Under the pieces are notes generated by a model. It worked only from the letters and a program-made list of their open reading frames with translations. It was not told where the DNA came from and did not search any database. Positions 1-64,000 of a stretch of 64,000 nt of DNA are shown here, one piece after another. Made by a program: the position numbers and the translations under genes. Numbering within the stretch: position 1 is the first letter of the stretch; each line of letters starts with the position of its first letter. The stretch is from Escherichia coli (GTDB lineage: Bacteria; Pseudomonadota; Gammaproteobacteria; Enterobacterales; Enterobacteriaceae): NCBI RefSeq assembly GCF_048403405.1, contig NZ_CP183129.1. One strand, given 5' to 3'.

Positions 1-148
1 CGCCATCCTCGATGCAGAATTTGGTCTGAAAGAGAAAGGCTACACCAGTCTGGTGGTTGTTCCGGTAGGTCATCACAGCGTTGAAGATTTTAACGCTACG
101 CTGCCGAAATCTCGTCTGCCGCAAAACATCACCTTAACCGAAGTGTAA
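1..148 (+). CDS. nfsB: 3' end of oxygen-insensitive NAD(P)H nitroreductase (partial, start outside window)
   Basis: Open frame from position 2 ending TAA 146-148; translated tail ...[29 protein letters not shown] matches recalled NfsB C-terminus; synteny with ybdG/pheP. Confidence 0.85.
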
Positions 149-207
149 TTCTCTCTTGCCGGGCATCTGCCCGGCTATTTCCCCTCAGATTCTCCTGATT
201 TGCATAA

Positions 208-1503
<1,296 letters not shown>

Positions 1504-1512
1504 TTAAAAAAA

Positions 1513-1539
1513 CCGCTCTCATCGAATGGATGAGAGCGG
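1513..1539. terminator. Bidirectional rho-independent terminator hairpin between convergent ybdG and pheP
   Basis: Inverted repeat ccgctctcatcgaatggatgagagcgg flanked by A-run upstream and T-rich tract downstream. Confidence 0.6.
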
Positions 1540-1570
1540 ACATCGTTTTGTCGGATGTAGCGTGAATGCC

Positions 1571-2947
1571 TTATTTCCGACGCAGCGTTTTAAATGCCAC
1601 AAACAGGAATACAATCCACACCGGCAGCAGGATCGCTGACAAGCGCATATCATCCATCGTGCACATCAGCAGCAAAATCATGCCGAGGAAGGCAATACAA
1701 AGATAGTTGCCGAACGGATAAAGCAGCGCCTTAAACTGTGTTTCACGTCCCTGACGTCGCATCGCCGCGCGAAAACGCAGATGCGCCAGGCAGATCATAA
1801 TCCAGTTCAACAGCAGCGTTGCTACCACCAGCGCCATCAGCAGACCAAACGCTTTTTGCGGCAGCAGATAGTTGATTAACACCACCAGCGAAGTGATCGC
1901 TCCGGAAAGCATCAGCGAGTTAATCGGCACGCCGCGACGGCTGACGCGAGTCAAAAACTTCGGCGCATTACCCTGCACAGAAAGGCCAAACAGCATGCGG
2001 CTGTTAGAGTAAACCCCGCTGTTATACACTGACAGCGATGCTACCAGAATGACGAAGTTCAGCGCAGAAGCTACCACGTTGCTGTCGAGATTATGGAAAA
2101 TCATCACAAACGGGCTACTGTTGGATTTCACTTCCACCCACGGATAGAGCGCCAGTAAAACTACCAGTGAACCGATATAAAACAGCAGGATGCGATACAC
2201 TACCTGATTTACCGCTTTCGGAATGCTTTTTTCCGGATCGCGCGCTTCAGCGGCAGTAATCCCAATCAGCTCCAGACCGCCGAAGGAGAACATAATCACC
2301 GCCAGCGACAAAATCAGCCCATTCCAGCCGGTGGCAAAGAAACCACCGTAGCGCCAGAGGTTGTCGATACTGGCTTTCTCGCCGCCGTGCCCAGAAAACA
2401 GCAGCCACAGGCCAAAGCCGATCATACCGATGATCGCCAGCACTTTAATCAGCGCAAACCAGAATTCGGTTTCGCCATATAAGCGCACGTTTACCAGGTT
2501 AACGGCGTTGATGATAATAAAGAAGGCGGCAGCCCAAATCCACGTTGGAACATCCGGGAACCAGTACTGCATATAGATGCCCGCAGCGGTCAGCTCTGCC
2601 ATTCCCACCAGCACGAACATCACCCAGTAGTTCCAGCCGGAGAGGAACCCGGCGAACGGTCCCCAGTATTTATAGGCAAAGTGGGCAAATGAACCGGATA
2701 CCGGCTCTTCGACCACCATCTCGCCGAGCTGGCGCATAATCAGGAAAGCGATGATCCCGGCGACGCCGTAGCCCAGTAATACAGCCGGACCCGCCATCTG
2801 AATCGCCGGGCCAATGCCAAGAAACAGACCAGTACCAATTGCGCCACCCAGCGCAATCAGTTGAATATGACGGTTATGTAATCCGCGATGAAGCGTCGGC
2901 TCTTGATTCGACGCAGTATCTTCCGATACGGTTGACGCGTTTTTCAC
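1571..2947 (-). CDS. pheP: Phenylalanine-specific permease
   Basis: ORF 1571-2983; recalled 458-aa PheP starts MKNASTVSEDTASNQ, which corresponds to the in-frame GTG at 2945-2947. Confidence 0.9.
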   Translation of the reverse strand: MKNASTVSEDTASNQEPTLHRGLHNRHIQLIALGGAIGTGLFLGIGPAIQMAGPAVLLGYGVAGIIAFLIMRQLGEMVVEEPVSGSFAHFAYKYWGPFAGFLSGWNYWVMFVLVGMAELTAAGIYMQYWFPDVPTWIWAAAFFIIINAVNLVNVRLYGETEFWFALIKVLAIIGMIGFGLWLLFSGHGGEKASIDNLWRYGGFFATGWNGLILSLAVIMFSFGGLELIGITAAEARDPEKSIPKAVNQVVYRILLFYIGSLVVLLALYPWVEVKSNSSPFVMIFHNLDSNVVASALNFVILVASLSVYNSGVYSNSRMLFGLSVQGNAPKFLTRVSRRGVPINSLMLSGAITSLVVLINYLLPQKAFGLLMALVVATLLLNWIMICLAHLRFRAAMRRQGRETQFKALLYPFGNYLCIAFLGMILLLMCTMDDMRLSAILLPVWIVFLFVAFKTLRRK

Positions 2948-3048
2948 GCCTTTCCCCTGTGTGTCTTTTTTGTTGAGGGGCACCTTTTAACATTTAGTGC
3001 CCATCGTCGCAAGACACAATCCACACGGTTAAACCGGGTATCCTGCTT

Positions 3049-6000
3049 TTATTTCCGTACCCGATGTCGGTGCAGCCACATCAGCTTATACGCCGCCGGG
3101 ATAATAAACAGCGATAGCAAAGGCGCGGTGATCATGCCGCCAATCATCGGCGCGGCAATCCGGCTCATCACCTCTGAACCTGCTCCCGTTCCCCACAGAA
3201 TCGGCAGCAGACCGGCGATAATCACTGCCACCGTCATCGCTTTCGGGCGCACGCGCAGGACCGCGCCGTGATACAACGCCTCATCCAGCTTCTGCTCGCT
3301 GAATGTTTGCGGATTATTCAACGACGGCTCGACCTCTATGGCGTGACGTAAATACATCAGCATCACCACGCCAAATTCGGCGGCGACTCCGGCGAGGGCA
3401 ATAAAACCGGTGCCCGTCGCCACGGAAAGATGAAAGCCCATCCACCACAGCAACCAGATGCCGCCCACCAGCGCAAACGGTACGCTGCTGATAATCAGCA
3501 ACGCTTCGCCCACCCGACGGAACGCCAGATACAACAGCACGAAGATGATCATCAGCGTCATCGGCACCATGAGTTTCAGCTTATGGTTGGCGCGCTCCAG
3601 TAGCTCGAACTGCCCGGAGAATGTCACGCTGGTGCCCGGTTTTAACTGCACTTTTTCAGCTATCGCTTTTTGCAAATCGTGAACCACCGACACCATGTCA
3701 CGATCGCGGGCATCGATATAAATCCAGCTCGTCGGGCGCGCATTCTCGGTTTTCAGCATCGACGGTCCGGTAGAGACTTTAACGTCGGCCACGTCTGCCA
3801 GGGTGATTTGCTGCTTCATCGGCGTCAGGATCGGCAACTGGCGCAGTGCCTGCGGACTATTGCGCCAGCTTTGCGGATAACGCAGATTAATTGGATAACG
3901 GGCAATCCCTTCCACCGTTTCGCCAACCATCGCCCCGCCCACCGCAGAAGTCACAAACAACTGCACATCCGCCACCGTCATACCGTAACGTGCGGCTTTT
4001 TCACGGTTAATCTCAACGTTGATATAGCGCCCACCTTCCAGACGCTCGGCAAGCGCAGAAGCCACGCCTGGCACCGTTCGTGCCACCTCTTCAATTTGCT
4101 CCGCCATCGCGTCGATATCCGCCAGCACAGTGCCGGAAACTTTAATGCCGATGGGGCTCTTAATGCCGGTTGAGAGCATATCGATACGGTTACGAATTGG
4201 CGGCACCCACAGATTCGCCAGCCCCGGCAGACGCACGGTGTTATCCAGTTCCTCAATGATTTTGTCCATCGTCATGCCTGGCCGCCACTGATCTTGTGGC
4301 TTAAGCTGGATGGTCGTTTCTACCATCTCCAGCGGAGCAGAATCGGTGGCGGTTTCCGCTTTCCCGGTTTTGCCAAATACCCGCGCCACTTCAGGTACGC
4401 TCATAATCAGCTTGTCGGTTTTTTGCAGCATACTCGCCGCCTCTGCTGCGGAAATCCCCGGCAGCGTCGATGGCATATACAACAAGTCGCCTTCATTGAT
4501 CTGCGGTAAAAATTCCCCGCCAACTTTATTGAGCGGCCAGAGAACCGTCAGCACCGAAAGCGCTGCCACCAGCAGCGTGGTTTTTGGCCAGTGCAGTACT
4601 TTCAGCAACAGCGGATGATAAGCACGAATCAAAAAGCGATTGAGCGGGTTACTGCTTTCTGGCGGAATTTTGCCACGGATCCAGTAACCCATCAGGATAG
4701 GGATCACTACGATCGCCAGCAGCGCCGCACCCGCCATCGCATACGTTTTGGTGAACGCCAGCGGGCCAAACAGACGCCCTTCCTGCCCTTCCAGGGTGAA
4801 GATCGGGATAAACGACAACGTGATAATCAGCAGACTGATAAACAGCGCCGGCCCCACTTCAACAGATGCATCGGTGATCACCTGCCAGCGCGTTTTATTA
4901 TCCAGCGTGGCGTCAGGATGCTGGTGCTGCCACTCTTCCAGTCGTTTATGCGCATTCTCGATCATGACGATAGCGGCATCGACCATCGCCCCGACGGCAA
5001 TCGCAATGCCGCCCAGCGACATAATATTGGCATTCAGCCCCTGGAAGTGCATGACAATAAAAGCAATACACAACCCCAGCGGCAACGAAATAATCGCCAC
5101 CAGCGCCGAGCGCACATGCCAGAGAAACAGCGCACAGACTACCGCCACCACAATAAACTCTTCCAGCAACTTGCCGCTGAGGTTGTCGATGGCGCGGTCA
5201 ATGAGCTGGCTGCGATCGTATGTTGTAACTATCTCCACGCCTTCCGGCAGACTGCTTTTCAGCGTTTCCAGTTTGTCTTTCACGGCGGCGATCACTTCTC
5301 GGGCGTTTTTGCCGGAGCGCAGGATCACCACCCCGCCCGCCACTTCGCCTTCGCCGTTCAGTTCGGCAATGCCCCGGCGCATCTCCGGGCCAATCTGGAC
5401 CTTCGCAACATCGCGCAGATAAACGGGCACGCCATTTTCACTGGCTTTTAAAACGATGTGATTAAAGTCGTCGAGCGTTTGCAGATAGCCGCTGGCGCGC
5501 ACCATATATTCCGCTTCCGCCAGTTCGATCGACGAACCGCCCGCTTCCTGGTTTGAAGCATCCAGCGCGCTTTTTACTTCGGCGAGACTGATGCCATATT
5601 GCGCCAGGCGCTGGGGATCGATAACCACCTGATACTCTTTCACCACACCGCCCACCGACGCCACTTCCGCAACGTCAGGGATGGTTTTTAGCTCATATTT
5701 GAGAAACCAGTCCTGCAATGAGCGTAAATCGGCCAGATCGTGCTTACCGCTGCGATCCACCAGTGCATATTCATAGATCCAGCCAACACCCGTGGCATCT
5801 GGCCCCAGCTCAGCGCTGACTCCCGCAGGCAGCTTACCCTGTACCTGGTTGAGGTACTCCAGCACCCGCGAGCGCGCCCAGTATGGATCGGTGCCATCTT
5901 CGAAAATGACATACACATAAGAGTCGCCAAACTGCGAGAAACCGCGCACAGTCTTCGCGCCAGGCACCGACAACATAGTGGTGGTTAGCGGATAAGTCAC

Positions 6001-6192
6001 CTGATTTTCAACGATTTGCGGTGCCTGACCGGGATAGCTGGTTTTAATAATCACCTGCACATCAGAGAGATCCGGCAGTGCATCCACTGGCGTGTTAATG
6101 ATGGTCCAGGTGCCCCAGATACTCAGAAACAACGCGCCCATCAGCACCAGAAAACGGTTCGCCACCGAGCGACGAATAATCCATTCAATCAT
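3049..6192 (-). CDS. cusA: RND copper/silver efflux pump, inner membrane transporter CusA
   Basis: 1047-aa ORF, RND transporter; synteny cusCFBA. Confidence 0.95.
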
Positions 6193-6203
6193 TGGTTATT
6201 CCC

Positions 6204-7427
6204 TCAATGCGCATGGGTAGCACTTTCAGAGCGCATCCGCTCCAGTGCGCCAGAAATATTGGCTTCGGAATCAATCAGGAACAGGCCGCTGGAAACCACC
6301 TTTTCACCTTCCGCCAGACCAGAGCGTAATGCGGTGACGCCTTGCGATGCCTGGAAAACGGCAACGCGTTTCGGTACAAAGCGCCCGTCGGCATCAACGG
6401 TAATCACCCGCTGTTCGCTGCCGGTATCAATCAGCGCTTGTGACGGAATGAGCAGCATCGGTTCGCTGGCGGTGTTGAGTTGCAACCAGGCGTTCATTCC
6501 CGGCTTTAGCGCCTCGTCGGTGTTGTCGACTTCCAGGCGCAGCTGCAGCGTGCGGGTTGCGGCATCCACGCCGGGTAGCAGCGTCCATTTGCGGATGGTG
6601 AGTGTTTTATCAGGTCGTGCCGGAACGGTGAGCGTAAACTGCGAGGCATCTTTCACCAGCCAGGCGATGGACTCCGGGATCGCGGCAGTGATCCACACCG
6701 GATCCATACCCTGAATTTTCGCGACCACGTTATCTTTGGCGATATTCATTCCCGCGCGCAGATCAAACGCGGTGATCACGCCATCAATGGGCGCTTTGAG
6801 CGTAAAGCGAGTCTGGATTTTTTGCGTGGCGATCAGGCGGCGAATATCCGCCTCCGGCATTCCCGCCAGTCTCAGCCGCTCAAGAATGCCTTCAGTCTGG
6901 GTCGCCGTACCGCCAGTTTCGCGCAGCAGTAAATACTCACTCTGCGCTTCCACCCAGTCGGGAATGGTCAGGTCGAGAAGCGGCGCGCCCTTTTGTACTT
7001 TATCGCCCACGGTAAGCGGATACACCTTGTCGATAAACCCGGCGGCGCGGGCCTGCACAATGGCATACTGATACTCGTTGTAACTGACATTCGCCGGGAA
7101 ACTTTGGGCAAAAGTCAGCGGCCCGCGCGTGACGGTCGCCGTTTTCACCCCCAGATTCTGCGTCTGAGTCGGGTCAATGCGCACACCAGACGCAGAACTC
7201 TCTTCATCGGCATATTTCGGCACCAGATCCATATCCATAAACGGCGATTTACCTGGTTTATCGAACCGCGTATTGGGATACATCGGGTCGTACCAGAATA
7301 AGATTTTACGTTCTGCGGTCGACGTTTTTTCTGCGGGCGGTTCCGCCTTTGCAAACCAGGTAAAACCTGCCGCAGAAATAATACCGCCCGCGATCATGCT
7401 GCCGATAATAAGCGCGATTTTTTTCAT
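6204..7427 (-). CDS. cusB: Copper/silver efflux membrane fusion protein CusB
   Basis: 407-aa ORF with signal/TM N-terminus; position between cusF and cusA. Confidence 0.95.
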   Translation of the reverse strand: MKKIALIIGSMIAGGIISAAGFTWFAKAEPPAEKTSTAERKILFWYDPMYPNTRFDKPGKSPFMDMDLVPKYADEESSASGVRIDPTQTQNLGVKTATVTRGPLTFAQSFPANVSYNEYQYAIVQARAAGFIDKVYPLTVGDKVQKGAPLLDLTIPDWVEAQSEYLLLRETGGTATQTEGILERLRLAGMPEADIRRLIATQKIQTRFTLKAPIDGVITAFDLRAGMNIAKDNVVAKIQGMDPVWITAAIPESIAWLVKDASQFTLTVPARPDKTLTIRKWTLLPGVDAATRTLQLRLEVDNTDEALKPGMNAWLQLNTASEPMLLIPSQALIDTGSEQRVITVDADGRFVPKRVAVFQASQGVTALRSGLAEGEKVVSSGLFLIDSEANISGALERMRSESATHAH

Positions 7428-7442
7428 CTCATTAAACCTGGG

Positions 7443-7775
7443 TTACTGGCTGACTTTAATATCCTGTAATAAAGAAAGGTTGCCCTGCTGGACAAAATTA
7501 AACGCCACTTTGTCGCCGGTTTTTATTTCGCCCATCTTCGTCTGCGGGGTGATGGTAAAGCGCATGGTCATCTCCGGCCAGTTCACGGCAGCAATCGGAT
7601 CGTGATGGATAGTGATTTTTTTGCTTTCCAGATCAATACCTTTTACCACCCCTGTGGCACTAATGACCTGCGGTTGTGCTTCGCTCATGGTTTCATGATG
7701 ATGTTCGTTAGCCTGGGCATTAAAGCCAATAACGGTAAACAGACTGAACATTGCGACTTGCAGTGCTTTTTTCAT
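7443..7775 (-). CDS. cusF: Periplasmic copper/silver chaperone CusF
   Basis: 110-aa ORF, signal peptide MKKALQVAMFSLFTVIGFNAQA. Confidence 0.95.
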   Translation of the reverse strand: MKKALQVAMFSLFTVIGFNAQANEHHHETMSEAQPQVISATGVVKGIDLESKKITIHHDPIAAVNWPEMTMRFTITPQTKMGEIKTGDKVAFNFVQQGNLSLLQDIKVSQ

Positions 7776-7798
7776 TTATTCTCTCCTGGAGTTAAAAA

Positions 7799-9175
7799 TT
7801 ATTGCTGCCAACCGCCACCAAGTGCGGTATATAAAGAAATTTCGTTAACCTGACGGGCATAATTCAGGTCAAGTAAAGTTTGTCGGGTTGCAAATAAAGA
7901 ACGTTCGGCATCCAGCACTTCCAGATAACTGACTGCGCCGTGCTGATATAATGCCCGCGCCCGTTGCAAAGTAATTTGCAGCGATGCCAGATAACGCTGC
8001 TGGGCGCTAATTTGATCGTTCAGGCTTTGACGTAATGCCAGCGCATCTGCCACTTCTTTAAAGGCATTCTGGATTTTCTGTTCATAATTCACCACCGACT
8101 GCTGCTGGCGAATTTCGGCGATATCCAGATTGGCCTGGTTGCGTCCGGCATTAAAAATGGGGATCTCAATTTTGGGAATAAAATTCCACATCCCGCTGCT
8201 GGCGTTAAATAAGGACGACAGATCGCTGCTGGCGGTCGATATTCCGCTGGTCAGACTGATAGACGGGAAAAATGCCGCGCGTGCAGCGCCAATATTGGCA
8301 TTAGCCGCCATCAACGCGTGTTCAGCTTCCATAATATCCGGGCGCTGCAATAAGATTTGCGACGACAAGCCCGCCGGTAATTTAACGCTTTGCAGGCTGT
8401 CGCTGTTTACTGTTTGCGCTTGCGGCAGCTTGCCGTAGCTTCCCAGCAACAGTTGCAATGCATTATTCGCCTGCGCCAGTTCCCCCTGACGTTTAGCGAT
8501 GTCGCTGCGGGTACTTTCTATCACCCCGCGAGCCTGTTCCAGCGCCAGAACATTGCTGCTACCGGTCAACAGTTGTTTTTCGACAAACGCATATGACTGC
8601 TGATAATTACGCAGCGTTTCTTCGGCTATTTGCAATTGCGCATACGCCAGTTGCTGATTGAAATAGCTTTGCGCGACATTAGAAACCAGCAGAATATGCA
8701 CCGCGCGCTGGGCTTCCTCAGTGGCTAAATAATTTTGGCGCTCGGCTTCGCTCATGTTCTTTAAGCGACCGAAAAAATCGAGATCAAAGCTGGCGTTAAG
8801 GCCGGTCGAAAACTCCCGTGTCGTGGCGGTATTCCCTTTAAGATTACCGCTCCAGCTGCCGCTGCCCTCGCCATTGAGCTGTGGGTAGCGGTCGGCATCG
8901 GTCAGACGATATTGCGCCCGTGCCTCCTGCACTTTCAGCGTCGCCATGCGCAAATCCCGGTTATTCACCAGCGCCTCGCTAATCAGCGTCTTCACCTGAT
9001 TATCAATAAAAAAGGTGCGCCAGCCCGCGTTCTGGTAGTTATCTGCTGCGTTAACCAGGCCGTTCTGGCTGAGTGAGAACTGCTTCGGTACGGGCATTGC
9101 CGGACGCTGATAATCCGGTGCCAATGAACAACCGGTTAGCGCAAGGGCCACACAAAATGGCAGAAGTTTAGGCAC
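7799..9175 (-). CDS. cusC: Outer membrane factor CusC, 5' end and promoter replaced by IS26
   Basis: 458-aa ORF whose first codon (GTG, complement of 9173-9175) lies inside the IS26 terminal repeat; recalled native N-terminus MSPCKLLPFCV is here (V/M)PKLLPFCV. Confidence 0.85.
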   Translation of the reverse strand: MPKLLPFCVALALTGCSLAPDYQRPAMPVPKQFSLSQNGLVNAADNYQNAGWRTFFIDNQVKTLISEALVNNRDLRMATLKVQEARAQYRLTDADRYPQLNGEGSGSWSGNLKGNTATTREFSTGLNASFDLDFFGRLKNMSEAERQNYLATEEAQRAVHILLVSNVAQSYFNQQLAYAQLQIAEETLRNYQQSYAFVEKQLLTGSSNVLALEQARGVIESTRSDIAKRQGELAQANNALQLLLGSYGKLPQAQTVNSDSLQSVKLPAGLSSQILLQRPDIMEAEHALMAANANIGAARAAFFPSISLTSGISTASSDLSSLFNASSGMWNFIPKIEIPIFNAGRNQANLDIAEIRQQQSVVNYEQKIQNAFKEVADALALRQSLNDQISAQQRYLASLQITLQRARALYQHGAVSYLEVLDAERSLFATRQTLLDLNYARQVNEISLYTALGGGWQQ

Positions 9176-9990
9176 TGTTGCAAATAGTCGGTGGTGATAA
9201 ACTTATCATCCCCTTTTGCTGATGGAGCTGCACATGAACCCATTCAAAGGCCGGCATTTTCAGCGTGACATCATTCTGTGGGCCGTACGCTGGTACTGCA
9301 AATACGGCATCAGTTACCATGAGCTGCAGGAGATGCTGGCTGAACGCGGAGTGAATGTCGATCACTCCACGATTTACCGCTGGGTTCAGCGTTATGCGCC
9401 TGAAATGGAAAAACGGCTGCGCTGGTACTGGCGTAACCCTTCCGATCTTTGCCCGTGGCACATGGATGAAACCTACGTGAAGGTCAATGGCCGCTGGGCG
9501 TATCTGTACCGGGCCGTCGACAGCCGGGGCCGCACTGTCGATTTTTATCTCTCCTCCCGTCGTAACAGCAAAGCTGCATACCGGTTTCTGGGTAAAATCC
9601 TCAACAACGTGAAGAAGTGGCAGATCCCACGATTCATCAACACGGATAAAGCGCCCGCCTATGGTCGCGCGCTTGCTCTGCTCAAACGCGAAGGCCGGTG
9701 CCCGTCTGACGTTGAACACCGACAGATTAAGTACCGGAACAACGTGATTGAATGCGATCATGGCAAACTGAAACGGATAATCAACGCCACGCTGGGATTT
9801 AAATCCATGAAGACGGCTTACGCCACCATCAAAGGTATTGAGGTGATGCGTGCACTACGCAAAGGCCAGGCCTCAGCATTTTATTATGGTGATCCCCTGG
9901 GCGAAATGCGCCTGGTAAGCAGAGTTTTTGAAATGTAAGGCCTTTGAATAAGACAAAAGGCTGCCTCATCGCTAACTTTGCAACAGTGCC
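9171..9990 (+). mobile_element. IS26 (IS6 family), copy 1, 820 bp
   Basis: 14-bp terminal inverted repeats GGCACTGTTGCAAA at 9171-9184 and complement at 9977-9990; internal tnp26 ORF. Confidence 0.95.
9234..9938 (+). CDS. tnpA: IS26 transposase Tnp26 (R29H variant)
   Basis: 234-aa protein MNPFKGRHFQRDIILWAVRWYCKYGISY(H)ELQ... matches recalled Tnp26; codon 29 is CAT here and CGT in copy 2. Confidence 0.95.
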   Translation: MNPFKGRHFQRDIILWAVRWYCKYGISYHELQEMLAERGVNVDHSTIYRWVQRYAPEMEKRLRWYWRNPSDLCPWHMDETYVKVNGRWAYLYRAVDSRGRTVDFYLSSRRNSKAAYRFLGKILNNVKKWQIPRFINTDKAPAYGRALALLKREGRCPSDVEHRQIKYRNNVIECDHGKLKRIINATLGFKSMKTAYATIKGIEVMRALRKGQASAFYYGDPLGEMRLVSRVFEM

Positions 9991-10439
9991 AATTTTACGC
10001 CGTCGGCGGTACGCAGCCAGCGCGGGGATTTGAGTCCTTCCGTGAAATTCCAGACCAGCTCACACAGCAGCCCGGTCAGGGTTTGCTCCATTTTTGGTTC
10101 CGCCGGACGTTCCAGCAGAAGCTGGAGTAGTGCGAGGCAGTATTCGCACAAGGAATCAGGTTCGGAAATAAAGTGCTCTGGTGTGGCGGGAAGGGTATCC
10201 ACGGTCAGGCTTTCGGTAAGATGCGGTGGGATGGGGTCGTGTAGTGTGGGTTGCAGTAGCGCAAGAGCCGCGTGAAGCCGCCCGCAGAGCGCCAGTCGTA
10301 GCGCTGGATCGTCGGTTTCAATCAGGGTTTCGGCAAAGCGGGCGCAGTAGTCAGCAAGGACAGTGAAATCCGTGGTGGCATTGAAGGGGACGGTCAATAG
10401 ATCGAGTAAATCGCTGTCAGTGGTGAGGATTGTAGCCAT
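9972..10439 (-). CDS. Hypothetical protein, 3' end truncated by IS26 (last ~5 codons and stop supplied by IS26)
   Basis: 155-aa ORF with GGAGG 8 nt upstream of ATG; acidic, Leu-rich product; reading frame runs into the IS26 end at 9990. Confidence 0.5.
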   Translation of the reverse strand: MATILTTDSDLLDLLTVPFNATTDFTVLADYCARFAETLIETDDPALRLALCGRLHAALALLQPTLHDPIPPHLTESLTVDTLPATPEHFISEPDSLCEYCLALLQLLLERPAEPKMEQTLTGLLCELVWNFTEGLKSPRWLRTADGVKLALLQS

Positions 10440-10785
10440 AGGGCAACCTCCGATAAGTGGGTGTTCAAGCCACCACCGGAGAGGCTAATCTCGCGGGTGG
10501 TGGAACCGGGCAGGGTTAGCCTTACCAGCCTTATCGGACACTGGCGCGTCTTGCGACGCCCCCGCCCGGCCCACCATTGAGATGTAACCGTGCGAACAAC
10601 ACAAAAAAAGACGCTGGCGCGTCATGTGTCGCCGATAAGATTTCTTCAGGAGGCTAATCCCGACGCCTGATTTTGCAGGCGCGGGAGAAAGATACTGCGA
10701 TTGGTCATGAGTGGCAAGGGCTACATCATGTTTACCGACATCTCACGCAAAAATACCCTGATTATTAATAGCGAAAATCAGTTTC
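10440..10785 (-). other. GC-rich, repeat-rich non-coding region downstream of the RT gene; candidate structured ncRNA
   Basis: No ORF of 60 aa or more; hairpin ccaccacc/ggtggtgg (10481-10503); inverted pair ccgataag/cttatcgg (10451-10458, 10530-10537); direct repeats gaggctaatc (10490-10499 and 10651-10660) and ctggcgcgtc (10541-10550 and 10611-10620). Confidence 0.3.
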
Positions 10786-13700
10786 TTATTTTGGCGGTAG
10801 CTTTTTGCGGTTCTTTGCCAACTGGAATCCTTCAGGTAACGGTTTGAATTTATCGCCGCCTTTAGGCCAGCGTTTTGCCCTGCTCTGAAATGCCCTTAAC
10901 GAGTCGATATCCAGCGTTGCAGCGACCACAAAGTCATTATCACCGCCCTTCACACGAGCAATATCACGCATAAAGGGTTCTTTTGCCGGGGAACGTACGC
11001 GACTATCGCCGTATTTTCGGTTATTCACTAAAATAGTATAGGCATGAATATCCAGCGCTGCTGATTCAATCAACGATGCAAACGTATCTAGATCTTTATT
11101 CCAGCTCAATACCATTAATGCATCGAGTGCGCCCTGAAAACGGATCCTCGCTTTACTATTCTGGAGTTCAGAGCAAATCATAACGCCAAAATTGACGCCG
11201 TGATGAATATATACCGGCTTACGTTGTTTAACATTAAGTGTCGAATCCCAAGACTTACCATAAGTTGAAAATAATGCCTCATCTTCACCTACGGCGGGTT
11301 CCAGCTTGGGTTGCCATATTTTGACACTCGCTGGATAGCCGAGTCTGTTATCTGAAAGGACAAGTACGGCCTCACTCTTCAGTTGATTATCGTCTAAGTG
11401 GCGGTATTCTGTTCCCGCAATTAGACTGATACCCGCCGAACTCAAACGATCAGCAATACTGTTAACCCAGCGTAACGGGATTGAAAGCTCAGGGAATAAA
11501 ACATAATCAGGTTTAGGAGATAGTTTCAATGTTGCATTAACCAGTTCAGAAATCCGCTGGTACCTTGAACGGGACAAGTTAGATTTATTGCAGGCCATTT
11601 TAGCCCAGTCGTCCTCCTCTGTTTTAATGCTGGTTAGCGCAACGACAACTTTATGTTTCCTGTCTGTGCCAATATGAATGAATTTCTTAGGCCGAGCTTT
11701 TTTTGTCGCTTCATCTGAGTCCTGCTCCGATGCTAGCAACGTCGGTTTGATCCATACTCCGCGTAATGCTTGAGTATATTTTGCCCAAATGGTGGACGGT
11801 CTCTCATCTGGTTTTTTGTCGGATGTGGAGGGTAATCCAACACATTCGGGGGCCAGTTCTGATATTTCAGCGGGTGTTAAAGGACGTGTAGGGAAAATGT
11901 AAGGTAGGTAACTTTCGTTTTTACGATTTCCTTTAGCCACTTTTTCCAGTCGGGTATTCTTGGTTGATTTCAAAAATAGCTTAATAACGTCAATATCAAT
12001 AAGCGATGAGTCGCTCATTAATTTCAGTATTTTAACTTCTTTTTTACTATCACGCTGATTAACAAGTTTTTCTGCCGACTGACTCTTTACGATCTGTTTA
12101 TAAGGTTCCTTTGCTAAATCAGCTCGAGCTACCAATGGCGCTTTTAAATAAAAATCTGCTGAATCAAAGCGAAGATCCAGTAAATCCTTTAGATTCGTCA
12201 GACTTTGTGAAATATGATTAAAAAATGTATCCGCAAGGCACTCTTCTTTCTTTGAACGTTTATCAAGAAATAATCTGTCAGGACTGTAATATCGTGTCGC
12301 TGCATCAACAAATAGCCAGCTTAATGTGCCTTTTATACAGCGCCAAAGATCATTTACTGCTCGAGTTTTGCAACCATTTATATTCACTTCCTTACCTGAA
12401 GTAATCACCGATGCCAACAGGTTGATGGATTCGTAAGCTTTAAGTACAATTTTTTCCGCGTGCTGCCATTCATTCATACTGATAGCAAAGCCAAGCAGCC
12501 TTGGCAGATAACTAAAATGTGCAAATAGATTATCAGCCCTAAGAATATGGTTGTAGGCAAACTGATAAAACTCTTCCCGCTGTTCTTTCCATTCACTTGG
12601 AGGCAGATCTCGTGCCAGTGTTTCAACGTAGCGTAATTGCAGTGACCAGCCCAAACGACGAATGGTTAATCCATCCGCACGGCGCAGAGTATCGGCATTT
12701 TCACCTACACTACCGGCAGCGGAAAGGACTTTAGCTGCGGTGGAGTGTTCCAGTTGATCCGGTGAAGGCATCAAGCGGTGTTCACTAGAAAGCTCGTAGA
12801 TCTCCTTTTCGATACTGTCGAGCAGGTCTATTCCAGCCCTCCCTTGAAGCACGAAAAGTTTTTGCTTATCGGATTGTAACTGGATGGTGGTCTTACCCTG
12901 GAAATGCTCGCCCTGCTGTATTTGCCATATTTGTTTTTGCTCGTTTTTCAAATAAACGCAATCATTGCCAAGCCTATCTTGCAGCAATAACATAAATTCG
13001 TGATTATTAGTAATTGTCCCTGTATCGCGTATTACAAGGAACATATCATCGACATAACGACCGTAGTGAATTGGTGATAGTTTTTCAATGACTAATTTAT
13101 CCCAATGGTGTAGCAATATATTTGAAATGATCCGACTGGCTGTTAATCCAATGACCAGACCACCATTAATAACAGGTGTTTTGTACGCTATTTTCTTTCC
13201 AAATGCCGCTGCGCCGTCAGACCAGTGCTTTAAGAATACTGCTAACTGTGCAGTAAACGCTTTTTCATCCTCAGTCAGTTTTATGTTTAGTGTGTTATAG
13301 AGATCATCAGAGGTTATAGCCAGTGGATCAATAAAATGATAGTAACTTTTTAAATCCAGTGAGGCGGCGATAATGTCACGATCTTTTTCCAACTCGTCAC
13401 GTATAGCTTTTAAGCCATCACCACGCCATTTTTGGTAGGGCTGGAAGTAGGGGCTAAAAGAACCCACGGCACTGATATGGAATGGATTATCCTGCTCATT
13501 GCTAAATAATTCATCATTACGAATACGCTTTAGCCGCGCGCCATAGCAACAGTTATCTAAGCTGGCATCAAATTTATGCCCGACCATGTTAATCCATAGT
13601 GCAGAGATAATGTGACTATCAACCGGGAAGTCACCAATAATACGAAACTCTGGTATCAGATCAAAATTATTAAATAAATGGTCGGCTGCTCGTTTAGGAT

Positions 13701-13995
13701 TAGAAAAGTGGACGTGTCCATTTTGGGATTCATGTTTTTTCTTTGTGGTTAATTTTTTCGGTAACAAACGAAATTTGCCAATCAACTTCTTATTGCTACT
13801 GAATCCATCTTCGCTCTGCAAAAGATCTAAGAGTTTTTGCAGGTTTTCAAGTAATTCCTGCTCATACTCGGCAAATTTGATAGCAACAGGAAATGTATTC
13901 TCAAAGAAGCTATCGGCTTTTGCTTTCCGGTAAGCGACCAGAAGGTCTTCAATCGTCAGATCATCCCAGCCAGTGAAAATTGCCTGATATGTCAT
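10786..13995 (-). CDS. Defence-associated reverse transcriptase fused to C-terminal nitrilase (CN-hydrolase) domain, DRT type 1-like (UG1-like)
   Basis: 1069-aa ORF with AAGGA RBS; RT motifs LDLKSYYHFID, GGLVIGLTASRIISNILL, YVDD (complement of 13045-13056); nitrilase triad context FPELS, VKIWQPK, GVMICSEL (Cys codon complement of 11173-11175). Confidence 0.75.
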   Translation of the reverse strand: MTYQAIFTGWDDLTIEDLLVAYRKAKADSFFENTFPVAIKFAEYEQELLENLQKLLDLLQSEDGFSSNKKLIGKFRLLPKKLTTKKKHESQNGHVHFSNPKRAADHLFNNFDLIPEFRIIGDFPVDSHIISALWINMVGHKFDASLDNCCYGARLKRIRNDELFSNEQDNPFHISAVGSFSPYFQPYQKWRGDGLKAIRDELEKDRDIIAASLDLKSYYHFIDPLAITSDDLYNTLNIKLTEDEKAFTAQLAVFLKHWSDGAAAFGKKIAYKTPVINGGLVIGLTASRIISNILLHHWDKLVIEKLSPIHYGRYVDDMFLVIRDTGTITNNHEFMLLLQDRLGNDCVYLKNEQKQIWQIQQGEHFQGKTTIQLQSDKQKLFVLQGRAGIDLLDSIEKEIYELSSEHRLMPSPDQLEHSTAAKVLSAAGSVGENADTLRRADGLTIRRLGWSLQLRYVETLARDLPPSEWKEQREEFYQFAYNHILRADNLFAHFSYLPRLLGFAISMNEWQHAEKIVLKAYESINLLASVITSGKEVNINGCKTRAVNDLWRCIKGTLSWLFVDAATRYYSPDRLFLDKRSKKEECLADTFFNHISQSLTNLKDLLDLRFDSADFYLKAPLVARADLAKEPYKQIVKSQSAEKLVNQRDSKKEVKILKLMSDSSLIDIDVIKLFLKSTKNTRLEKVAKGNRKNESYLPYIFPTRPLTPAEISELAPECVGLPSTSDKKPDERPSTIWAKYTQALRGVWIKPTLLASEQDSDEATKKARPKKFIHIGTDRKHKVVVALTSIKTEEDDWAKMACNKSNLSRSRYQRISELVNATLKLSPKPDYVLFPELSIPLRWVNSIADRLSSAGISLIAGTEYRHLDDNQLKSEAVLVLSDNRLGYPASVKIWQPKLEPAVGEDEALFSTYGKSWDSTLNVKQRKPVYIHHGVNFGVMICSELQNSKARIRFQGALDALMVLSWNKDLDTFASLIESAALDIHAYTILVNNRKYGDSRVRSPAKEPFMRDIARVKGGDNDFVVAATLDIDSLRAFQSRAKRWPKGGDKFKPLPEGFQLAKNRKKLPPK

Positions 13996-14289
13996 GCGTT
14001 ATCGTCCTTAGATTACAGTCTGTACAGAATTAGCCAGCCGTTTCATGCCCGAAGGGGGGCTCTTGACACCAGTAATCCATCAGTGAGGCTGGCAATAATT
14101 TTGATTTGTATCCATGTTACACGCTCCCCGCAACCAGTCCGAGCATATATTTGTCACATTTTTCCCGAAAGTGATTAAGTTTGAATTTTTTGTTTAATGT
14201 CGATTTTTAGTCGACAAAATGAGGAATAAGTAAACTATTTCTTGCTGTGGCGTATCCCTGAATCTACACTGGTTTAAATATTTGTACTA
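13996..14289. promoter_or_regulatory. Divergent promoter region between RT gene and abiEi, with palindrome gtcgatttttagtcgac (14200-14216)
   Basis: AT-rich 294-bp spacer between divergently oriented genes; inverted repeat is a candidate AbiEi operator. Confidence 0.35.
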
Positions 14290-15093
14290 ATGTCTATTCA
14301 GAGGCGACAGTTGCCAAACTATCTAAACTGGCTGATGCAGCACACGCTACCCGGCCAGGTGCTGCTCCAGTCATGGCTTACCCGCAACGGCATAGATCGT
14401 AAGCTCTCTTATCTCTATGTGAAGAATGGCTGGCTCAGGCGGATCGCTCACGGCGTATACTGCCGGACGGGCCGTGAGCCGGATTGGGTAGACGCGGTTT
14501 ACTGCCTTCAAACACAGTGGGAAAAGCCTGTTCGGGTGGCGGGGCTAACCAGCCTTGCGCTTCAGGGCCATGCGCACTATACCGAACCGGGTAAGCCGCA
14601 GGTCTGGCTCGCGCTTCCGGCTTACGTTAAGCTGCCGGGATGGTTTGCTGCCTTCGAACAATCTGCAACATTTATCACGCTGTATACATCGGGGCTTACC
14701 GTAGATGTAACGTCATTGACTACGGAACTGAAAATTGGCGACCGCCAGTTAGCAGGCAGTGCCCCGGAACTGGCCGCGTATGAGATCGCCTGCGGCGTTC
14801 CTTCGTTGATATCGTTCGAACATGCCGATGCTCTGTTTCAGGGGATGAATCTTCTCAGCCCACGCAAATTGCAGGCACTGCTTCGCGCCAGCCATTCGGT
14901 TAAAACCAACCGGGTGATGCTTTACCTTGCCCGGCGTAATGGACACCCTTATTTTCAGTATATTGATCAAAGCGGTATAGAAACAGGTACGGGAAAGCGG
15001 CAAATCATACCCGGCGGCTGGCTGGAGCCGGATTATCAAATTACTGTTCCACGCGCATTTAAACCGGAAGGAGTCGAAGATGGATCTGCGTGA
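14290..15093 (+). CDS. abiEi: AbiEi-family antitoxin/transcriptional regulator (type IV TA / abortive infection)
   Basis: 267-aa ORF, N-terminal motif ...GWLRRIAHGVY typical of AbiEi; overlaps downstream AbiEii gene by 14 nt. Confidence 0.7.
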   Translation: MSIQRRQLPNYLNWLMQHTLPGQVLLQSWLTRNGIDRKLSYLYVKNGWLRRIAHGVYCRTGREPDWVDAVYCLQTQWEKPVRVAGLTSLALQGHAHYTEPGKPQVWLALPAYVKLPGWFAAFEQSATFITLYTSGLTVDVTSLTTELKIGDRQLAGSAPELAAYEIACGVPSLISFEHADALFQGMNLLSPRKLQALLRASHSVKTNRVMLYLARRNGHPYFQYIDQSGIETGTGKRQIIPGGWLEPDYQITVPRAFKPEGVEDGSA

Positions 15094-16000
15094 TAGCTAT
15101 GCCCGGCAGGTCAAACTGTTGATGGCCGCTCTGCCGTATGTGGCGAAGGAGTCCTGTTTCGCGTTGAAAGGCGGCACCGCAATCAATTTGTTTGTGCAGG
15201 ATTTTCCCCGTCTGTCGGTGGATATTGATCTGGCGTACAAGAGCTTTGCGGATCGCGATACTGATTTGGCGGCTATCAACGACGCTTTGAAGAGGATTAC
15301 TGCATCGCTGAACGGCAGACCGGGGATCACCGCGATTCGGCAGGAAAATAAAGCGGATGAAAAGCGCATCATTGTGAATACCGCTGATGCAAAGATTAAG
15401 ATCGAGGTTAGCCCGGTCTGGCGCGGGCTGTTGTTGCCTCCGGCAGAAATGCCTGTGTGCGAACGTGTGGAAATGGAGTATGGCTTCACCACCATGAGTG
15501 TCGTCTCGCTGGCGGATCTTTATGGCGGTAAAATCTGCGCTGCGCTTGATCGTCAGCACCCGCGCGATCTGTTTGATGTGCTGAATATGCTGGAGAAACC
15601 GGGACTGATGCGGGAGATCTTTGACGGTTTTCTTTGTTATCTGGCAGGCCATCCCCGCCCCATCGCCGAGTTGCTGGCTCCAAACTGGGATACAGAGCGG
15701 ATCGCCACGTTGTACGCGCAGGAATTTTCGGGGATGACTCAGCAGGAAACGTCGCTGGAATCGCTGCTGTCAGTAACGACTTTGCTGCCGCAGGCGTTGA
15801 AGTCACATCTTACGGATCTGGATCGCGAGTTCTTGCTCAGTTTTAAGCAAAACAGCCCTGACTGGTCGCGGTATCGCTATCCTGAAATTCAGCATCTTCC
15901 GGCTATTCGCTGGAAGCAACGTAATCTGGCGGTGCTGAAAGATAAAAATCCGGCGAAGTATGTGGCGGCGGTGAATAAGCTAGAGAGGGTGCTGGCGTAA
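15080..16000 (+). CDS. abiEii: AbiEii/AbiGii-family nucleotidyltransferase toxin
   Basis: 306-aa ORF with SD GGAAGGA; motif ALKGGTAINLF...RLSVDIDLAY characteristic of AbiEii (DUF1814). Confidence 0.75.
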   Translation: MDLRDSYARQVKLLMAALPYVAKESCFALKGGTAINLFVQDFPRLSVDIDLAYKSFADRDTDLAAINDALKRITASLNGRPGITAIRQENKADEKRIIVNTADAKIKIEVSPVWRGLLLPPAEMPVCERVEMEYGFTTMSVVSLADLYGGKICAALDRQHPRDLFDVLNMLEKPGLMREIFDGFLCYLAGHPRPIAELLAPNWDTERIATLYAQEFSGMTQQETSLESLLSVTTLLPQALKSHLTDLDREFLLSFKQNSPDWSRYRYPEIQHLPAIRWKQRNLAVLKDKNPAKYVAAVNKLERVLA

Positions 16001-16364
16001 TCAATAGACCAGCATTAATCACGGATGATTACCAATCAGACAGATATGGTTAAATCATCGAATTCATAATTAATACTTTTTCTTACGCCGCTGAACAGCT
16101 TGAAAAGGATACATATTTTAAATATCAGTGAAGTGGACAGTTTATTGCCGTTATTAATAGAGATGGAGGAATAAATACGCGTATTCTACTATTGCAACAA
16201 AAACAACGATGATGATCAGTTTTCATAATGAAGTAACCTGACAGATATAAAAATGTTGATTGAGGCTCAATGCCCGGATGAAGGTTGTCGAGGGAGCCAG
16301 GTGGTTTTTTCTTTTGGGTGATCTCCATTGCTGGATAGTCCCCTCTTTCTCGCTCAAAGCAGAC

Positions 16365-16689
16365 TGTACTGCACCCATTTTGTTGGACGATGAAATGGAA
16401 TAGCCCCTAATATGTCAAAGCCAAAATACCCTTTTGAAAAGCGCCTTGAAGTCGTGAATCACTACTTCACAACTGATGATGGTTACAGGATCATCTCGGC
16501 ACGTTTTGGTGTCCCCCGAACCCAGGTCAGGACATGGGTTGCCCTCTATGAAAAACATGGAGAAAAAGGTTTAATTCCCAAACCTAAAGGCGTTAGTGCT
16601 GATCCAGAGTTGCGTATTAAGGTCGTGAAAGCTGTGATCGAGCAGCACATGTCCCTTAATCAGGCTGCTGCTCACTTTATGCTTGCTGG
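16365..16689 (+). mobile_element. IS150 (IS3 family) left-end fragment, truncated by IS26
   Basis: Begins TGTACTGCACCCATTTTGTTGGACG; encodes the N-terminal ~90 aa of InsJ/OrfA (MSKPKYPFEKRLEVVNHYFTTDDGYRIISARFGVP...) ending at the IS26 boundary. Confidence 0.8.
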
Positions 16690-17509
16690 GGCACTGTTGC
16701 AAATAGTCGGTGGTGATAAACTTATCATCCCCTTTTGCTGATGGAGCTGCACATGAACCCATTCAAAGGCCGGCATTTTCAGCGTGACATCATTCTGTGG
16801 GCCGTACGCTGGTACTGCAAATACGGCATCAGTTACCGTGAGCTGCAGGAGATGCTGGCTGAACGCGGAGTGAATGTCGATCACTCCACGATTTACCGCT
16901 GGGTTCAGCGTTATGCGCCTGAAATGGAAAAACGGCTGCGCTGGTACTGGCGTAACCCTTCCGATCTTTGCCCGTGGCACATGGATGAAACCTACGTGAA
17001 GGTCAATGGCCGCTGGGCGTATCTGTACCGGGCCGTCGACAGCCGGGGCCGCACTGTCGATTTTTATCTCTCCTCCCGTCGTAACAGCAAAGCTGCATAC
17101 CGGTTTCTGGGTAAAATCCTCAACAACGTGAAGAAGTGGCAGATCCCACGATTCATCAACACGGATAAAGCGCCCGCCTATGGTCGCGCGCTTGCTCTGC
17201 TCAAACGCGAAGGCCGGTGCCCGTCTGACGTTGAACACCGACAGATTAAGTACCGGAACAACGTGATTGAATGCGATCATGGCAAACTGAAACGGATAAT
17301 CAACGCCACGCTGGGATTTAAATCCATGAAGACGGCTTACGCCACCATCAAAGGTATTGAGGTGATGCGTGCACTACGCAAAGGCCAGGCCTCAGCATTT
17401 TATTATGGTGATCCCCTGGGCGAAATGCGCCTGGTAAGCAGAGTTTTTGAAATGTAAGGCCTTTGAATAAGACAAAAGGCTGCCTCATCGCTAACTTTGC
17501 AACAGTGCC
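16690..17509 (+). mobile_element. IS26, copy 2, 820 bp, same orientation as copy 1
   Basis: Terminal repeats GGCACTGTTGCAAA at 16690-16703 and complement at 17496-17509. Confidence 0.95.
16753..17457 (+). CDS. tnpA: IS26 transposase Tnp26
   Basis: 234-aa protein matching recalled Tnp26 (R29). Confidence 0.95.
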   Translation: MNPFKGRHFQRDIILWAVRWYCKYGISYRELQEMLAERGVNVDHSTIYRWVQRYAPEMEKRLRWYWRNPSDLCPWHMDETYVKVNGRWAYLYRAVDSRGRTVDFYLSSRRNSKAAYRFLGKILNNVKKWQIPRFINTDKAPAYGRALALLKREGRCPSDVEHRQIKYRNNVIECDHGKLKRIINATLGFKSMKTAYATIKGIEVMRALRKGQASAFYYGDPLGEMRLVSRVFEM

Positions 17510-19543
17510 AAACCGTTAGCGATTATGGTTCCGGCGTGGAATGAAACGGGCGTCATCGGCAATATGGCCGAGCTGGCGGCGACCACGCTCGACTATGAAA
17601 ACTATCATATCTTTGTTGGCACCTACCCCAACGACCCCGATACACAGCGTGATGTTGACGAAGTGTGCGCTCGCTTCCCGAACGTGCATAAGGTAGTCTG
17701 CGCGCGTCCTGGCCCCACCAGCAAAGCCGACTGCCTGAACAACGTGCTGGACGCCATCACCCAGTTTGAGCGTAGCGCCAATTTCGCTTTTGCTGGTTTT
17801 ATTCTGCATGACGCCGAAGACGTAATTTCACCGATGGAATTGCGTCTGTTCAACTATCTGGTCGAGCGTAAAGATCTGATTCAGATCCCGGTGTATCCGT
17901 TCGAACGCGAATGGACGCACTTCACCAGCATGACTTACATTGATGAGTTTTCAGAACTGCATGGCAAAGATGTTCCGGTGCGTGAAGCCCTCGCCGGACA
18001 AGTGCCCAGCGCAGGCGTCGGTACCTGTTTCAGCCGCCGCGCCGTGACCGCACTGTTAGCTGACGGTGACGGTATTGCTTTCGACGTGCAGAGTCTTACT
18101 GAAGATTACGACATTGGTTTCCGCCTGAAAGAAAAAGGTATGACGGAAATTTTTGTCCGTTTTCCGGTGGTGGACGAAGCCAAAGAACGCGAGCAGCGTA
18201 AATTTTTACAGCACGCGCGGACGTCAAACATGATCTGCATGCGCGAATATTTCCCTGATACCTTTTCGACTGCGGTTCGACAAAAATCTCGCTGGATCAT
18301 CGGCATTGTTTTCCAGGGCTTTAAAACCCACAAATGGACCTCCAGCCTGACGCTGAACTACTTTCTCTGGCGCGACCGCAAAGGGGCAATCAGTAACTTT
18401 GTCAGCTTTCTCGCGATGCTGGTGATGATCCAGCTTCTGCTGTTACTGGCGTATGAAAGTTTGTGGCCCGATGCCTGGCATTTCCTTTCTATTTTCAGCG
18501 GCAGCGCATGGTTAATGACCCTGCTGTGGCTAAACTTTGGTTTGATGGTTAACCGCATCGTGCAGCGGGTGATTTTTGTCACTGGCTACTACGGTCTGAC
18601 GCAGGGGCTGCTATCTGTCCTGCGTCTTTTCTGGGGCAACCTGATTAACTTCATGGCCAACTGGCGCGCGTTAAAACAGGTACTTCAACACGGCGATCCA
18701 CGTCGTGTCGCGTGGGATAAAACAACGCATGACTTCCCCAGCGTGACTGGCGATACCCGCTCGTTGCGCCCGTTAGGCCAAATTCTGCTGGAAAATCAGG
18801 TCATCACTGAAGAACAACTCGATACAGCACTGCGTAATCGCGTCGAAGGTCTACGCCTGGGCGGTTCAATGCTGATGCAGGGGCTGATTAGCGCCGAACA
18901 GCTGGCACAGGCGCTGGCAGAGCAAAACGGCGTGGCGTGGGAATCCATCGACGCCTGGCAGATCCCGTCCTCGCTGATTGCCGAAATGCCGGCCTCCGTG
19001 GCGCTGCATTATGCAGTGCTGCCGCTGCGTCTGGAAAATGATGAGTTAATTGTCGGCAGTGAAGATGGTATTGACCCGGTTTCGCTGGCGGCCCTGACGC
19101 GTAAAGTCGGACGCAAAGTGCGTTACGTCATTGTTCTGCGGGGACAAATTGTCACGGGGTTACGTCACTGGTATGCACGCCGACGCGGTCACGATCCGCG
19201 GGCAATGTTGTACAATGCGATTCAGCATCAGTGGCTCACGGAACAGCAGGCCGGTGAAATCTGGCGGCAATATGTGCCGCATCAGTTCCTGTTCGCCGAA
19301 ATACTGACCACGCTCGGTCATATTAATCGTTCAGCAATTAACGTGTTGTTATTGCGCCATGAACGCAGTTCTCTGCCGCTCGGCAAGTTTTTGGTCACCG
19401 AAGGCGTTATCAGCCAGGAAACGTTGGATCGCGTCCTGACAATTCAACGCGAATTACAAGTTTCGATGCAATCACTATTACTCAAAGCAGGTTTAAACAC
19501 AGAACAGGTTGCGCAACTGGAGTCCGAAAATGAAGGAGAATAA
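17510..19543 (+). pseudogene. nfrB: nfrB (c-di-GMP-controlled glycosyltransferase, phage N4 adsorption protein B), 5'-truncated by IS26
   Basis: Native reading frame begins directly at the IS26 right end (KPLAIMVPAWNETGVIGN...); ~70 N-terminal codons of the recalled 745-aa NfrB are missing; longest ORF 17525-19543. Confidence 0.85.
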
Positions 19544-59886: not shown

Positions 59887-60378
59887 TTACTCTGCACAAG
59901 CATCAGGCAATCCAGCTCCAATATTTGTTATAAAATAATGCGCAACATTAATTTCACCAACAAAAAAAAGGTTTACGCTATCCCCTTGCCCTGGTATTTT
60001 ACCATATTTACACCACACTTCTTTTGTATCTGGATCATTCTCTGATACGATTTTCGCCACTTGTTCCCTGGCCCTCACCGTCAATGTTTTCTTAAACCTC
60101 CCCCCATCATCGATTGTTAGGGAAAAATAAGAAAAAAAATAATCATCTTCTACATTTGTGGATATTGATATATCCACCGCTACATGCGGAAAAAAATCTG
60201 GGAGCCATGTAAAAACCCCATCACTTTCTGGTATTGCCATATAGTTTATGTAATGCTTACTTACAAGAGATTCATCTTTGTGTAAATAAAGATAAGTAGT
60301 CACGCATAAAAAAACAACGATTATAATAGCAAAAATAAATATTACCATCTTTGAGATGTTACTTGAGATAGCCAGCAT
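59887..60378 (-). CDS. Small membrane protein immediately downstream of Rhs toxin tip; candidate cognate immunity protein
   Basis: 163-aa ORF (alternative start MVIFIF...) with N-terminal TM helix; AT-rich; overlaps rhs stop; does not match my recollection of K-12 YbbC. Confidence 0.5.
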
Positions 60379-63300: not shown

Positions 63301-64000
63301 CCGCCAGTTCTTTTTTCACCACCCGCTTCAGCCCGGCCCCGCCTTCTGTATGCAGCACCTCTCGCCGGTTCAGGCTGTCGGTGACGGTGATGCGGTCCTG
63401 CTCATACTGGTAGCGGTAACTCAGGCCTGCCGGGTTCAGCTGCTCCACCACCCGCCCCGCATCGTCGTAGCGGTAGCGCATCTCCGGCCTTCCCGCATAA
63501 CGGTGCCCCACCATCCGGCCCGGGTGCTGCGGGTCATACGTGAAAGCGCGCACCTGTGTCCCGCTGCGGTCATATACCGCCAGCAGTTCACCGGCTTCCG
63601 TATACGTGTACCGCACCAGTGGCGCACCGGGCAGATTCTCCGGGTATGCCGGGTCGTGCATCAGCCACACCGCCGAAAGGCGGATACCCCTGTCGGGGCC
63701 GTATTCCGTACCGGGCAGTGTGTCGGGGAACGCTGAGGCTGAGAGAGGGCGGGAACGGTCAGAAGAAGATAGCGAAGAGGTGCGGGCCTCTTCCGCACGC
63801 TGCGCCTGTGTGGTCAGCACCAGACGGAACTCCCGCCCGGCACCGTCCGTCACGCCGGTGATTTCCCCGGCCAGGTCACCGGCGGCCTCACGCCGGTACG
63901 TCAGCGTCTGCCCGAAGCGGTCCGCCAGCCCGGTAAGCACCCGGTACGGCGGCAGCGGCGCTGGCAGTACGTCCTCAGTGCCCGGCACCCGCTCTGACCA
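60359..64000 (-). CDS. Rhs family protein (RhsD locus position), partial, with variable C-terminal toxin domain
   Basis: YD-repeat-rich ORF running off the window; core ends ...DPIGLAGG...[11 protein letters not shown], followed by ~140-aa low-GC C-terminal extension. Confidence 0.85.

Follow-up and report, generated by a model that had tools for sequence, protein, structure and literature searches.

A single private base, G149A, separates the two IS26-v1 copies of a stepwise-built pseudo-compound structure in Escherichia coli

IS26-v1, the IS26 allele whose transposase carries G184N, has been defined in two studies (PMC8477213 and PMC9019673), and enhanced cointegration activity has been reported for the G184N form of Tnp26 (PMC8477213; PMC9019673). 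Tnp26 binds the terminal repeat of the element through a trihelical domain (Pong et al., PMC8477213). A pair of IS26 elements in direct orientation around a passenger segment corresponds to the pseudo-compound transposon and translocatable unit of Harmer and Hall, and typical outcomes of IS26 reactions, also seen at the locus described here, include missing target duplications and deletion of adjacent DNA (PMC7885326, PMC9601100, PMC9019673). The copies within one array need not be of one allele; mixed arrays, a frameshifted copy included, have been documented (PMC9019673).

In the window, the whole 64-kb stretch of E. coli DNA that we analysed, two IS26 elements in direct orientation, both on the + strand and 6,699 bp apart, bound a passenger segment as in a pseudo-compound transposon; no further IS26 fragments were found in the 64 kb. 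Both are 820-bp elements with 14-bp terminal inverted repeats that are intact at both ends of each copy (motif match to GGCACTGTTGCAAA). Each encodes a single DDE transposase of 234 aa with an N-terminal helix-turn-helix, starting at IS position 64 (window positions 9234 and 16753). Their features are as follows.

9171..9990, + strand: IS26-v1 copy 1, 820 bp, carrying G149A; 819/820 identical to copy 2, with A459 and AA613-614 relative to canonical IS26
9171..9184, + strand: left terminal inverted repeat of copy 1 (GGCACTGTTGCAAA), exact motif match
9977..9990, + strand: right terminal inverted repeat of copy 1, reverse-complement motif match
9234..9938, + strand: tnp26 of copy 1, 234 aa, R29H and N184, from translation; Pfam DDE_Tnp_IS240, E 5e-49
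9318..9320, + strand: codon 29 of copy 1 tnp26, CAT (His), variant base 9319, from sequence comparison
16690..17509, + strand: IS26-v1 copy 2, 820 bp, encoding the common R29 transposase, from comparison with copy 1 and canonical IS26
16753..17457, + strand: tnp26 of copy 2 (R29, N184), from translation

Compared directly, base by base, the two copies agree at 819 of 820 positions. The sole mismatch is at IS position 149, which is A in copy 1 (9319) and G in copy 2 (16838); codon 29 of tnp26 is CAT (His) in the former and CGT (Arg) in the latter, the only difference between the translated proteins. The first-pass annotation had reported this single-base difference, and its coordinates, offset and residue number were correct; a full pairwise alignment of 9171-9990 against 16690-17509 placed the mismatch at 9319/16838 alone. 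It had also called the two transposases otherwise identical, which holds outside residue 29 but passes over the fact that both are of the G184N (IS26-v1) form. Relative to canonical IS26, represented here by the elements of loci L003 and L005 whose transposase is annotated as WP_001067855.1, both window copies have A459, silent at P132, and AA613-614, which converts GGC to AAC (G184N). Copy 2 differs from the canonical element at 459, 613 and 614 only, and copy 1 additionally at 149.

Judged by these markers, together with the 820-bp length, the identical 14-bp terminal repeats and the 234-aa DDE transposase, both elements are the known IS26-v1 allele. Copy 1 is unlike it in one extra change, G149A (R29H), seen in no other searched copy. 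The v1 allele is common, since a 72-bp probe across 613-614 matched exactly in 2,231 of 5,824 IS26-bearing E. coli records, and its presence in both copies mildly favours their common ancestry. The near-canonical complete IS26 copies found in GTDB species representatives (loci L009-L028) were canonical at the three v1 positions in 15 of 15 cases, none being v1.

The G149A change has so far been seen in this one place. A 71-bp probe centred on 9319 had no exact match among 22,094 IS26 places in complete E. coli genomes (3,358 of 5,426 carrying IS26), nor in the best 5,000 plasmid records (19,318 places). A 42-mer with the variant base had no match in GTDB species representatives, where the wild-type 42-mer identified 20 loci, and none in JGI metagenomes. 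Within a collection of 15 billion proteins, the exact R29H protein (WP_418511574.1 / XPL99551.1) occurs on a single contig, an E. coli replicon of 5.47 Mb, and the R29 form encoded by copy 2 on at least 1000 contigs. Matches at 99.0% (six E. coli and one plasmid) were considered as further carriers and discarded, as they are joins of two pieces, and L005, the single one checked, is wild type at this position. We also rejected a circulating lineage marked by G149A, given its absence from the E. coli genomes, plasmids, GTDB and JGI sets and the single contig with the protein; the absence of the base from all other searched IS26 copies, taken with the shared v1 markers, implies that the SNP marks no separate circulating lineage. 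IS26 copies commonly carry private SNPs. Six of the 15 complete copies from species-representative genomes have private substitutions, one or two each, and the 90%-identity protein cluster that contains Tnp26 has 4,851 distinct member sequences. As a missense SNP private to one copy of an IS allele that is itself well known, G149A is known in kind.

Residue 29 had been placed in the N-terminal region of the transposase. The location is right, but the description undersells a nearly invariant position where helix 2 of the DNA-binding helix-turn-helix begins. A search of 1.84 billion proteins yielded 108 cluster representatives of the family that cover this position; 104 of them have Arg, as do 85 of the 88 that are less than 90% identical to Tnp26. 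R29 is likewise nearly invariant in an alignment of 21 sequences (41-66% identity) in which D78, D138 and E173 are invariant. One representative, a truncated protein (P0055), has His at position 29, so that His is not strictly forbidden there. An AlphaFold2 model of the transposase (mean pLDDT 91.6) has helices at residues 11-24, 28-37 and 44-66; the middle one of this trihelical DNA-binding domain, helix 28-37, has R29 as its second residue. Among solved structures, a fold search without residue-level mapping ranked the ISCth4 transposase as the closest to the model; no solved structure of an IS6-family transposase was found by sequence or profile search.

Published work bears on this arginine. 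Through a homology model, the conserved R29 of Tnp26 was equated with R127 of the ISCth4 transposase, which contacts the GT of the TGT motif, and changing the G of that motif (repeat positions 6-8) abolished Tnp26 binding (PMC8477213). The Tnp26 residues mutated in the same study were E30, G39, R49, W50, Y54, F4 and F9; R29 was not among them. Engineered helix-turn-helix substitutions left less than 1% of wild-type cointegration; with R49A or W50A, binding to the terminal repeat was abolished (PMC8477213). The mutants E30P, G39I/W, R49A, W50A/P and Y54A lie in the same trihelical domain as R29H (PMC8477213). Unlike them, R29H is natural and semi-conservative, and it falls outside the tested set. 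From the conservation, the model and these mutants, we think it likely that R29H, if the base is real, would weaken end binding by the copy 1 transposase. Targeted conservative cointegrates have been recovered only when both ISs supplied the same transposase, with DNA identity needed at the reacting end (PMC7885326), so copy 1, if defective, would be ill suited to the targeted route. Copy 2 is an intact IS26-v1 by sequence, and cointegration or mobility through it is expected.

The segment between the two IS26 copies and the chromosomal sequences on either side reveal how much has been moved and lost at this locus. The relevant features are given here.

7799..9170, - strand: cusC minus its first 11 nt, left chromosomal junction, mapped onto strains 4621 and VCSW5
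9991..16364, + strand: thrW (tRNA-Thr) island fragment, 6,374 bp; 6374/6374 identity to TUM14771 L004
10786..13995, - strand: 1069-aa defence reverse transcriptase (DRT, RT_UG5-nitrilase class); PADLOC PDLC03780, 1034 bits, full length
14290..16000, + strand: AbiEi antitoxin (14290-15093) and AbiEii toxin (15080-16000); PADLOC and Pfam matches
16365..16689, + strand: IS150 bases 1-325, cut by IS26 copy 2; 325/325 identical to IS150 of K-12 MG1655
17510..19543, + strand: nfrB minus its first 204 nt, right chromosomal junction, mapped onto strain 4621

The first 6,374 bp of the cargo (9991-16364) are thrW-island DNA, identical at every position to E. coli TUM14771 (positions 4001-10374 of locus L004), and this segment is chromosomal in 258 genomes. 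In relatives, the island and the cus-nfrB flanks are about 0.3 Mb apart. IS26 has relocated or duplicated the strain's own anti-phage defence genes within the chromosome. At the site of the IS150 stub (16365-16689), the relative examined, TUM14771 (L004), has no IS150.

On the left, window positions 1-9170 (ybdG, pheP, cusA, cusB, cusF and cusC) are identical to E. coli strain 4621 at 9170 of 9170 bases. On the right, positions 17510-64000, from nfrB and nfrA on to an RHS element, differ from that strain by two substitutions and no indels, which gives 2 SNPs and 0 indels over 55,661 bp of flanking sequence. The substitutions are at 38559 (T/A) and 57362 (G/A). Five further genomes are equally close over 17510-64000, and the window comes from a strain clonally very close to 4621, MS 69-1, TUM1226, TUM14771, GN02461 and OX030728. 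No IS26 was found at the cus-nfrB or thrW locus in the relatives examined.

Between these flanks strain 4621 has cusR, cusS, a 17-kb vgrG/Rhs island and ISAs1. Mapping shows that 19,579 bp of that strain, from nt 1-11 of cusC through nt 204 of nfrB, are missing from the window; the missing stretch spans the cus promoter region as well as cusR, cusS, the 17-kb vgrG/Rhs (type VI effector) island and ISAs1. IS26, 6,699 bp of cargo and a second IS26 stand in its place. A deletion of 2.6 kb, obtained by mapping onto VCSW5, was superseded once the near-identical strain 4621 gave 19.6 kb. Presumably, copper/silver-responsive induction of cus and the N4-phage receptor function of NfrB have both been lost with the deleted DNA.

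These junctions do not fit a single replicative event. The 8-bp sequences flanking the elements are GAAGTTTA and AATTTTAC for copy 1 and CTTGCTGG and AAACCGTT for copy 2; no matching 8-bp target-site duplication was found among the four, and the signature of copy-in insertion is thus missing. The copies differ at one base, and the interior and the flanks come from separate loci in relatives. The first-pass annotation had reasoned from the premise that copies born of one recent replicative event should be identical; the absent duplications, the thrW-island interior and the 19.6-kb flank deletion do not agree with such an event here. Missing duplications are what is expected after incorporation of a translocatable unit followed by adjacent deletion, and they are no argument against the identity of the elements as IS26.

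The structure is an IS26 pseudo-compound transposon combined with an adjacent deletion, built in several steps, and with stepwise construction the identity of the two copies is never guaranteed by mechanism. We infer the following order of events. IS26 together with adjoining thrW-island DNA as far as a target site within IS150 would have been excised as a translocatable unit; this unit would have been incorporated beside an IS26 already present at cus-nfrB; and an adjacent deletion mediated by IS26 would have removed the 19.6 kb. If this route was taken, the thrW locus of the source genome should contain a third IS26 abutting IS150 at bp 326. Large inversions mediated by IS26 were considered as a different route and seem less probable; within the window both flanks keep the gene order of the relatives, which makes the translocatable-unit route simpler. 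In two respects the structure is unlike those modelled by Harmer and Hall. Its passenger is a piece of the host chromosome (the DRT, AbiE and the IS150 stub) moved by about 0.3 Mb, with no resistance gene, and one of its bounding elements has a probable DNA-binding defect.

That leaves the origin of the A at 9319. The first-pass annotation had set different origins of the copies against a later mutation, possibly a sequencing error. The framing is fair, and of these a later mutation is favoured by the absence of G149A elsewhere and by the shared v1 markers. On balance, we lean toward a late mutation, probably in situ, in copy 1 of the multi-step IS26-v1 structure. A G:C-to-A:T transition at IS position 149 would have taken place after the copies last shared a template. 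Copy 1 would from then on make a transposase with weakened or lost end binding, and the whole structure could react through copy 2, which still encodes G184N Tnp26. Yet the two SNPs in ~62 kb relative to strain 4621 lead one to expect only ~0.05 SNPs in 1,640 bp of IS26. Under a uniform clock a real in-situ mutation is then roughly a 1-in-20 event, and this low expectation keeps an assembly or consensus error in play, in which case both copies would be identical IS26-v1 elements and the A a residual base-calling or polishing error in the repeat. Residual consensus errors concentrate in multi-copy repeats such as IS26. Position 9319 is within such a repeat, where short reads lack unique placement, and the variant is a singleton across every collection searched, as an error would be; the expected number of real SNPs in the two copies at background divergence points the same way. 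However, the surrounding assembly is extremely accurate when set beside independent assemblies, with 0 indels and 2 substitutions in the 55,661 bp of flanks and 0 differences across the 6,374-bp cargo. In addition, position 149 is near enough to the unique cusC flank for ordinary read pairs to anchor it, and private SNPs in IS26 are common in public genomes (the 6 of 15 above). We consider an error unlikely.

Alternatively, the two copies may have had different histories, copy 1 arriving with G149A already in place, for example carried by a translocatable unit or supplied by a separate donor plasmid, and then being brought together with an unrelated R29 copy, whether through targeted conservative cointegration or through homologous recombination. 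The stepwise build without target duplications is compatible with this, as is the finding that targeted conservative reactions of IS26 link copies that already exist and create no further one (PMC7885326), and the mixed alleles documented within one array (PMC9019673) offer a precedent. It is difficult to reconcile with the absence of the base from every other IS26 among ~41,000 places searched, and with the restriction of the R29H protein to one contig, so that no plasmid of that assembly carries it. All three IS26-v1 markers are common to both copies, and a targeted reaction would be poorly served by a transposase crippled at R29 (PMC7885326; helix-turn-helix mutants at <1% in PMC8477213). 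An inherited difference of this kind seems to us quite unlikely. Counting both the late in-situ change and inheritance from a separate donor copy, we judge a real mutation to be quite likely.

One can also envision that R29H is a real, natural attenuating allele, retained because silencing one of two hyperactive copies stabilises the structure. We regard this as highly improbable; if true, it would provide a natural test of the proposed contact between R29 and TGT and of Tnp26 cis-preference. What gives the substitution its interest is that it strikes a conserved arginine for which published modelling has proposed a base-specific contact with the terminal repeat (PMC8477213). Taken alone, it carries little weight: IS26 and its v1 allele are well known, private differences between copies are common, and the exact protein is already in NCBI. 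G149A could nevertheless be used as a copy-specific marker to track which IS26 takes part in later rearrangements of the strain. The structure as a whole exemplifies IS26 remodelling a chromosome, not a resistance plasmid, with the strain's own defence genes moved and cusRS, the Rhs island and the 5′ end of nfrB lost.

A plasmid origin of the cargo was considered and rejected. The best "plasmid" matches, NZ_CP146678.1 and CP088862.1, hold thrW DNA of chromosomal type without IS26, and the same segment lies on the chromosome in the 258 genomes noted above. These two PLSDB plasmid records contain chromosomal-type DNA (thrW-island genes, pinE and paoD), and NZ_CP146678.1 repeats a stretch that is also on the MS 69-1 chromosome; both may be mis-assigned or duplicated contigs. 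At the far end of the window, the gene for the RHS element core protein has a G+C content of 62-66% (60000-64000), and such raised G+C is typical of Rhs core regions.
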